Below are positions 661 through 1,333 of a stretch of 64,000 nt of DNA, in pieces. The first letter of the stretch is position 1; each line of letters opens with the position of its first letter. The notes under the pieces are model-generated. The model did no database searches. It had not been told where the DNA came from and saw only the letters and a list, made by a program, of their open reading frames with translations. The position numbers and the translations under genes were made by a program. Origin of the DNA: Eledone cirrhosa (lineage: Eukaryota); contig OZ024740.1 in NCBI GenBank assembly GCA_964016885.1, positions 326,802,001-326,866,000 on the forward strand. Reading direction: 5' to 3'.

Positions 661-1333
661 TACATTATGAAGAGAGAAGAAACATTTAGATATAATTAGT
701 AATAAAATGTATCATACCTAAACTGCTCCTAAATTCCTCGACTACGTAGTTTCGTGGCATAAACAAAAACAATATATCATAAAGATATAGAGTCCCTGCG
801 AGGTCTGCCGACTTATCAAGAGGATACCTCATTTTGCTAGTCTCAAGAACGCGTCTACACGACGTGAGAAAGAATCCCAAAAGGCGGAGGGGGAGATAGT
901 CACGCGATATAACGGTCGAGAAACAGAGCTAAGCCTCTTATAACCACGAAGAAAATACCACAGAGGCGGAGGGGGTATTCATACCGAGGCCGCAGAAGAG
1001 GTGGTGAAGAAGGCTAGAAGTATGAGTAATGGAAGCTTTCCAGTTGTCCCCACACCTCAAAGATTGCTCGACCAGAGGGAGTTATTAACAATATATTTAG
1101 AAACACACAGATACATGCGGACACACACATATATACATGAATGCATCCGCACCCAACTGTGAGTTAAGGGTGCCAACTTCACCGATGTTGCTCAATGAAT
1201 AACCGGGACAGACCAATTCAGTTGAACTAGACTGAACCAGTATCAGAGTTAAAAATACATTATGAAGAGAGAAGAAACATTTAGATATAATTAGTAATAA
1301 AATGTATCATACCTAAACTGCTCCTAAATTCCT
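661..1333 (-). mobile_element. ORF-less HHR-bearing element (family B), 595-bp unit with terminal direct repeat
   Basis: 661-738 repeated at 1256-1333; (TA)n on both sides; 664-953 matches 36859-37150 in reverse complement. Confidence 0.8.
735..824 (-). ncRNA. Type I hammerhead ribozyme, U3-A8 core variant (family B)
   Basis: Minus strand: TCCTC-TTGATAA-GTCGGCA..TGCCAC-GAAA-CTACGTAG-TC-GAGGA. Confidence 0.75.

Follow-up and report, generated by a model that had tools for sequence, protein, structure and literature searches.

The core of the hammerhead ribozyme contains a C3-G8 pair, and Perreault et al. (2011, PMC3088659) describe its covariation to U3-A8 in several natural hammerheads, with activity in vitro shown earlier. 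In Schistosoma mansoni, the hammerheads of Penelope-like elements (PLEs) include a U3-A8 variant with about 1,300 descriptor matches, and the same report gives low in vitro activity for Schistosoma minimal hammerheads as dimers (Cervera and de la Pena 2014, PMC4209133). The tandem hammerhead repeats of animals are described as non-LTR retrozymes, which are probably mobilised by PLEs (PMC7229834; preprint 10.64898/2026.07.22.740005). For a PLE from Anolis, hammerhead cleavage is reported to be dispensable for insertion in vitro, and the account of its RNA-seq data gives no reads that end at the cut site (Frangieh et al. 2024, PMC11167929). The swap from C3-G8 to U3-A8 is not new: it has been published both for natural hammerheads and for PLE hammerheads. 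Searching full-text literature for the names of the pairs returned only the reports cited here and unrelated papers; further U3-A8 families may be listed in supplements.

We analyzed a window of 64,000 nt from Eledone cirrhosa (GCA_964016885.1, OZ024740.1:326,802,001-326,866,000), which has a G+C content of 27%; the assembly is 3.0 Gb. An earlier note, made from the sequence of the window, had reported TTGANAA cores at seven sites. A sequence search found all seven of these heptamers: TTGATAA at 813-819(-), 1987-1993(-), and 36995-37001(+), and TTGAAAA at 12849-12855(-), 57315-57321(-), 57400-57406(+), and 63210-63216(-). Each of them lies in a type I hammerhead frame, with a strand of helix I, then N3-UGA-N7-N8-A, helix II, GAAA, a short helix III, a U-H cleavage site, and the other strand of helix I. 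Position 3 is U and position 8 is A at every site, instead of C3 and G8, so Watson-Crick pairing is retained.

Five of the seven sites are well formed. The other two are defective: the copy at 12822 has lost A13, and the copy at 63183 has a weak helix II. The remaining core letters (U4 G5 A6, A9, G12 A13 A14, the A15.1-U16.1 pair, and a non-G at position 17) are kept in six of the seven sites, with 12822 as the exception, and also in representatives of families H, I, and J from elsewhere in the genome. The three helices of a type I hammerhead are arranged around the core, with helix I open, although helix II is irregular in family B as well as weak at 63183. We think it very probable that all seven are minimal hammerhead motifs of type I that belong to PLEs and to their non-coding tandem derivatives. 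U3-A8 is predicted to keep the catalytic fold, and the RNAs likely self-cleave.

The family A hammerhead motif at 735..824 on the minus strand is complete, with U3 at position 819 and A8 at position 814. Its core (UUGAUAA) is flanked by a 5-bp helix I (UCCUC/GAGGA) and by a helix II with a long insert (GU(C)GGCA/UGCCAC), and GAAA comes next. Helix III and its loop together form a 10-nt palindrome, ACUACGUAGU; the palindrome that follows GAAA and supplies helix III reads CUACGUAG. The predicted cleavage is at a GUC site, after C17 (position 740), which is between positions 740 and 739. A second complete family A motif is at 36990-37079(+).

The family B motif (1863..1998, minus strand) also has a UUGAUAA core, along with a helix I of ACCCG/CGGGU, an imperfect helix II, and a long helix III with 5 bp and a large loop. 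The oppositions in helix II that are closest to the core are one A.A and three U.U. A 78%-identical relative of family B at another locus (L073) retains U3-A8, and its helix II is a regular one of 5 bp (GUAAA/UUUAC).

The minimal hammerheads of family C form a head-to-head pair. The left arm (57288..57325, minus strand) is complete, with a UUGAAAA core, 4-bp helices I and II, and a palindromic ACCGGU at helix III. The right arm (57396..57433, plus strand) has a single C.A mismatch in helix I. The 38-nt form reads CCUU, UUGAAAA, GCAG-loop-CUGC, GAAA, CCGG, UA, AAGG. There are also two decayed copies that resemble family C, both on the minus strand. In the copy at 12822..12859, GCAA replaces GAAA, which removes A13. 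The copy at 63183..63220 has a 3-bp helix II that includes a wobble pair, and its loop 3 (CCGC) is not palindromic. This second copy sits at the tip of an imperfect inverted repeat of about 55 bp (63126-63277) with arms that are 81.5% identical; this is probably an inverted partial copy whose junction falls exactly at the ribozyme.

Helices I and II of families A and C each comprise 4-6 pairs, and their helix III has just 1-3 pairs with a palindromic loop. A short helix III with a small palindromic loop is a trait of the minimal hammerheads of PLEs. The trait is present in families A and C and absent from the copy at 63183 and from families B and I, in which the stem of helix III is long.

The window also contains canonical C3-G8 minimal hammerheads with CUGAUGA cores: a family F copy at 37687..37731(-), with a twin at 38450-38494(+), and a family D copy at 54735..54770(+), which was found as a descriptor match. 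Both family F hammerheads lie inside a 1.2-kb inverted repeat (37482-38700) whose arms are 95% identical and which has internal direct repeats at 99% identity.

None of the hammerhead models in Rfam had a match at the gathering score anywhere in the window. Even at E <= 10, there were no hammerhead rows over 690-2050 or 57240-57480, which hold families A, B, and C. For HH9, with its 52-bit cut-off, even the two canonical family F copies (37687 and 38450) scored only 38 bits. Because the Rfam models miss all of these U-A copies, hammerhead censuses that are based on Rfam under-count this class. Rfam did give rows for microRNA families at 57249-57472, all of them under the cut-off (for instance, MIR2646 at 123/245 bits). 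We do not take these rows as evidence of a microRNA: the head-to-head pair of family C forms a long hairpin, and the rows are structural look-alikes.

Could the seven sites be chance matches to a short AT-rich descriptor, without any biology? The bare TTGANAA heptamer is at chance level in the window, with 52 matches versus an expectation of 45.6 +/- 6.8, and 52 or more matches occurred in 23 of 100 shuffles. Two individual copies, at 12822 and 63183, fail to fold as hammerheads, which also fits with chance. We counted matches to a full descriptor with positions 3 and 8 left free. It specified a helix I with at least 4 pairs, a helix II with at least 4 pairs and one defect tolerated, GAAA, a helix III closed by A15.1-U16.1, and a non-G at position 17. 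(A stricter descriptor missed family A because of the bulge in its helix II, so the relaxed descriptor was used for all counts.) The window has 7 matches to the descriptor, versus 0 in the reversed window. We also scanned 990 kb of the genome, as 99 evenly spaced 10-kb stretches from contigs 1-8, with the same sequences reversed as the control, and found 110 real matches versus 36.

Restricting these to compact matches (a span of at most 100 nt and a loop 3 of at most 8 nt) left 82 real matches and 14 in the control. Among the compact matches in the 990 kb, C3-G8 was found 49 times versus 0 in the control, U3-A8 was found 11 times versus 1, and the remaining 14 combinations, pooled, were found 22 times versus 12. 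The other combinations of just A or U were scarce (AA 3, UU 3, AU 0), so AT-richness is not the cause of the U-A class. The earlier note had called U3-A8 an uncommon swap. That description does not suit this genome, where U3-A8 accounts for 11 of the 60 compact matches with a paired core.

The relaxed scan gave 14 U-A matches, and 3 of them do resemble AT-rich chance matches; but the reversed sequence had just 1 U-A match versus 11-14 real ones. Similarly, reversed versions of family-specific patterns had 0 matches in all six genome searches (described below), versus 296 to 13,194 for the real patterns. Together with the constant placement of the hammerheads beside PLE frames, these controls contradict the chance explanation at the level of families, and we consider it extremely improbable.

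To describe the core states of the families, we grouped the matches from the sample and the window by similarity, which gave 15 clusters with at least two members. The majority state is C-G in 8 clusters and U-A in 5 (families A, C, H, I, and J). One cluster is a tie between CG and GG, and one is UU, which consists of two copies of one repeat. None of the 15 clusters has a C-A or U-G majority. In the sample, cores with a single change are lone members of C-G clusters, except for one C-A copy in family J.

We also searched the whole genome with exact patterns that had N at positions 3 and 8, and we took the states from the first 100 matches listed for each family. These tallies, like the clusters, come from our own descriptor and exact-match patterns and are biased to young copies. 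The family A pattern, which comprised the core and helix II, had 6,006 matches, and the first 100 listed were 99 U-A and 1 U-G. Family I had 2,225 matches (99 U-A and 1 C-A among the first 100 listed), and family J had 347 (97 U-A, 2 C-A, and 1 G-A among the first 100 listed). Family C had 13,194 matches; all of the first 100 listed have A8, with position 3 not displayed. A C-G sister of family J had 296 matches, and the first 100 listed were 88 C-G, 6 C-A, 3 U-G, 3 other, and 0 U-A. Finally, the H-type frame had 1,294 matches, with 81 C-G, 19 U-A, and 0 mixed cores among the first 100 listed, which puts the share of H-UA at about a fifth of the 1,294.

Under another explanation, U3-A8 is a product of decay: canonical hammerheads, once inserted in an AT-rich genome, would have accumulated C-to-T and G-to-A changes that pair only by coincidence. 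Both of the changes are transitions, the window is just 27% G+C, and copies with a single change do exist, such as the 6 C-A and 3 U-G copies among the first 100 listed for the C-G sister of family J. However, the same 100 copies include singles and no doubles, and the first 100 listed for the H-type pattern include no mixed cores. U-A was the state in 97-99 of the first 100 listed for families A, I, and J. Also, U-A hammerheads are carried by many PLE copies whose 775-aa frames are uninterrupted. As judged from the tallies of the first 100 matches, neutral decay yields scattered singles and no doubles, and the U-A state belongs to the founders of the families. Decay as the source of U3-A8 strikes us as very improbable. 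Instead, whole families (A, C, I, J, and H-UA) were founded in the U3-A8 state.

The statement in the earlier note that positions 3 and 8 change together is thus correct at the level of families, with singles appearing only as scattered copies and never as the majority of a cluster. Neither in the 15 clusters nor in the pattern searches were single-change cores as common as U3-A8 in family consensuses, which the note had named as the finding that would speak against it. Its argument from this covariation to selection is sound, and for the 3-8 pair it is strengthened by the double change between families, the sister pairs, and the protein tree (see below).

Two other observations concern variation within families. 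One of the 2 C-A copies among the first 100 family J matches listed (L037:8921-8965, plus strand) combines C3-A8 with a compensated first pair of helix I, which is C-G instead of U-A. In contigs of four organisms that cover family A, there was no variant at 10% or above in the core (813-819), while 13 other positions vary.

Which elements carry the swapped core? Family C is associated with PLE_C, whose 775-aa frame encodes RVT_1 and GIY-YIG domains. PLE_C is very abundant, with 45,949 candidates at first look, and many of the copies that we scored have uninterrupted frames. We examined eight copies of PLE_C, with frames of 769-775 aa, and a family C hammerhead accompanies each of the eight on its coding strand. 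In seven of the eight there is one about 1.05 kb past the stop codon, and in three there is one upstream; two copies have both hammerheads, about 4.7 kb apart. A different UUGAUAA candidate, at L154:1085(+), is upstream of an intact PLE_C frame. It has a 6-bp helix II, a likeness to the canonical family F frame, and a poor helix I.

PLE_I has a frame of 784-795 aa with a GIY-YIG-like block at its C-terminus. It forms tandem arrays with a period of 3,543 bp and one family I hammerhead in each unit. In two PLE_I arrays (L155:1304-8389 and L156), the open frame extends across the 3' portion of the family I hammerhead. Since the open frame already spans that part, the ribozyme and the start of the frame overlap. 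In the H-type lineages, direct copies of the hammerhead bracket the PLE frame, and they are 5,578 bp apart for H-UA and 4,953 bp apart for H-CG. Thus, families C, I, and H, elsewhere in the genome, are all found in flanking repeats beside elements that encode a reverse transcriptase and GIY-YIG.

Within the 64-kb window, we found no U3-A8 copy that flanks a coding PLE. The only PLE reading frame in the window (32495..34612, minus strand) has the RT motif YVDD and, at the C-terminus, a GIY-YIG-like block, and its 5' end is truncated by a (TA)n tract. The earlier note had tied one U3-A8 copy to a "Neptune-like" coding PLE, but the hammerhead of this PLE is a canonical one: a minimal CUGACGA hammerhead with a weak helix I at 32185..32232(-), about 270 nt past the stop codon. 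A 60%-identical relative of this PLE (L131) similarly has a C3-G8 hammerhead, from family E, about 190 nt past the end of its frame. Of the U3-A8 copies, the one nearest to the PLE in the window (36990, plus strand) belongs to an insertion of family A that is 5'-truncated and lies on the opposite strand. Between the two are a (TA)n tract and a LINE-like RT fragment. This fragment (35347..36567, plus strand; RVT_1 with E = 7.6e-17) lies between the PLE and the family A copy and is part of neither. It is probably from a LINE, and a FADD motif can be read in its translation. Another LINE-like element, at 27362-31011(+), has three consecutive open frames, RVT_1 (E = 1e-28), and a weak match to zf-RVT.

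How often did the core switch? The earlier note had described the swapped core as recurring in several unrelated families. Families A, B, and C do lack anything alignable in common outside the core, so that part stands; but the carrier elements indicate at least two independent switches, and not one for each family. The evidence comes from pairs of related families and from a protein tree. Family J (U-A) and its C-G sister have flanks that are about 84-87% identical on both sides of the ribozyme. They differ in the core pair, and they differ in helix II through compensating changes. The H-UA and H-CG hammerheads have a common frame and a common 5' strand of helix II. We found no homology between their flanks at the DNA level, and their relation is visible in the proteins alone: the PLE proteins beside H-UA and H-CG are 57-60% identical. 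This makes two pairs of related families that are separated by exactly the double change.

We built a maximum likelihood tree from seven natural PLE frames, which represent the lineages of this genome alone. The topology was ((PLE_C U-A, window-type PLE C-G), (PLE_I U-A, (PLE_H U-A, PLE_H C-G))). All four inner branches were strongly supported, with a long-branch warning at the deep join. This topology requires at least two switches of the core under any rooting, and adding the pair from family J likely makes three. The number of families is not a number of independent events: one ancestor could underlie the U-A families that have C17 (A, B, H, I, and J).

Families A and J are non-coding, and we turn now to how they were inserted. 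Family A has a spacing of 595 bp at many loci, with one type I hammerhead per unit, and family J has a spacing of about 319 bp in an array on contig 2. The insertion at 660..1333(-) contains a full 595-bp unit of family A plus an 80-nt "tail" that repeats the start of the unit; that is, it has unit positions 2-595 and then 1-80, at 100% identity, with (TA)n tracts on either side. The insertion at 36862..37154(+), which holds the second family A motif, is 5'-truncated and has unit positions 383-595 plus the 80-nt tail. More broadly, insertions of family A show scattered 5' truncation, whole 595-bp repeats, and often a second, head-to-head arm. Their 3' ends are fixed at two points, which are unit position 80 and positions 245-251. 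Families A and J are inserted in the manner of PLEs.

We also examined the two-armed insertions of family A that have both ends within the locus (from L001-L030; for instance, L001:831-2146). In 16 of 16, one arm ends at position 80 and the other ends at 245-251. This pairing would fit with simultaneous copying from two fixed starts on both DNA strands. If both strands are extended from two start sites, then two-armed insertions are expected.

If the template were a processed RNA, then insertions might begin at the cut site of the ribozyme. We rejected this idea because the 5' ends of family A are scattered: the only arms that start at the cut site are the copy in the window (unit position 2) and one arm at L026 (position 1). 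Comparing families A, B, and J to the PLE loci by DNA similarity to find an autonomous partner gave short low-complexity matches alone.

In run X1 (1.4 billion letters), the summed depth of contigs over family A (735-1333) was about 1e5 to 5e5. This exceeds what about 6,000 genomic copies would give in a DNA library; because the type of run is not recorded, the depth is not readable as expression and is only a hint that expression is high. The 595 joint of family A appears in contigs from four runs, and tandem copies in the DNA would explain the joint equally well.

What might the swapped hammerheads do? We propose that only master copies that retain the 3-8 pair would found families. If founding masters keep this pair, then the hammerhead fold presumably matters to the element in vivo. 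Copies whose helix III has 1-2 pairs and a palindromic loop could cleave as dimers within multimeric transcripts, and cleavage could cut read-through or tandem RNA down to the length of one unit. Once inserted, copies would decay neutrally, which would account for the dead copies at 12822 and 63183.

The motif might instead be kept for a role other than catalysis. The fold and the 3-8 pair would then act as a structural signal, either to the PLE enzyme or in keeping the RNA stable, and cleavage would be weak or irrelevant. Three observations point this way, and they count against a strict need for cleavage: the Anolis PLE is reported to insert in vitro without cleavage, with no reads described as ending at the cut site (PMC11167929); the minimal hammerheads of Schistosoma are reported to be weakly active in vitro (PMC4209133); and the 5' ends of family A are off the cut site. 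On the other hand, U4, G5, A6, A9, G12-A14, and the non-G at position 17 are kept in every U-A family, and a plain hairpin needs none of these. Also, the pair between positions 3 and 8 is not known outside the active fold of the hammerhead. (The pairing itself is described in PMC3088659.) Overall, we consider a purely non-catalytic role to be unlikely, and we favor self-cleaving ribozymes.

A broader proposal, which we offer tentatively and think is rather less probable than not, is that living Penelope lineages of this one genome have exchanged C3-G8 and U3-A8 cores on at least two occasions, and probably on three, with no family of intermediate core, and that the swapped core serves several coding PLE lineages, of which many copies are uninterrupted, as well as their non-coding riders. 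If this is true, then U3-A8 would be a fully competent and repeatedly selected alternative core, which is perhaps tuned for slower or dimer-dependent cutting, and nature would have provided, in these families, a ready-made series with which to measure the level of ribozyme activity that a retroelement requires.

In principle, our results add little to what has been published; their value is as a clean data set. It combines matched C-G and U-A sister lineages in one genome, intact coding carriers for both types of core, and very young non-coding families with thousands of near-identical copies. This material is suited to asking whether, and how fast, the hammerheads of PLEs and retrozymes must cleave in vivo.

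Among the described systems, the PLEs of S. mansoni, as they are presented in PMC4209133, resemble the families of E. cirrhosa in several ways. In both, the repeats that flank PLEs contain type I minimal hammerheads with a short helix III and a palindromic loop, and both have many single copies as well as pairs of copies on opposite strands. Both also have U3-A8 in place of C3-G8, which forms a distinct family in S. mansoni. Unlike in that account, E. cirrhosa has several U-A families beside C-G families, and the sister pairs and the protein tree tie the swap to lineages. The compensatory pair is identical to the one reported by Perreault et al. (PMC3088659) as a rare variant of natural cores. 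Their examples are few and come from all domains of life, whereas here a single animal genome has the swap in 11 of 60 paired-core matches.

Family A, with its 595-bp unit, and family J, with a unit of about 319 bp, are like the metazoan non-LTR retrozymes described in PMC7229834 in that they are non-coding, AT-rich tandem repeats with one type I hammerhead per unit, and they too coexist with autonomous PLEs. Unlike those retrozymes, which are described with units of about 170-400 nt and with RNA forms, family A has a longer unit and a U3-A8 core, and it is described here from DNA. Finally, the Poseidon PLE of Anolis carolinensis is reported to have two internal start sites for reverse transcription and a "tail" (PMC11167929), which is similar to the two fixed ends and the frequent two arms of family A. 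The spacing differs, with 30-40 nt given for Poseidon and about 165 nt between the ends of family A, and on our side the likeness is one of sequence.
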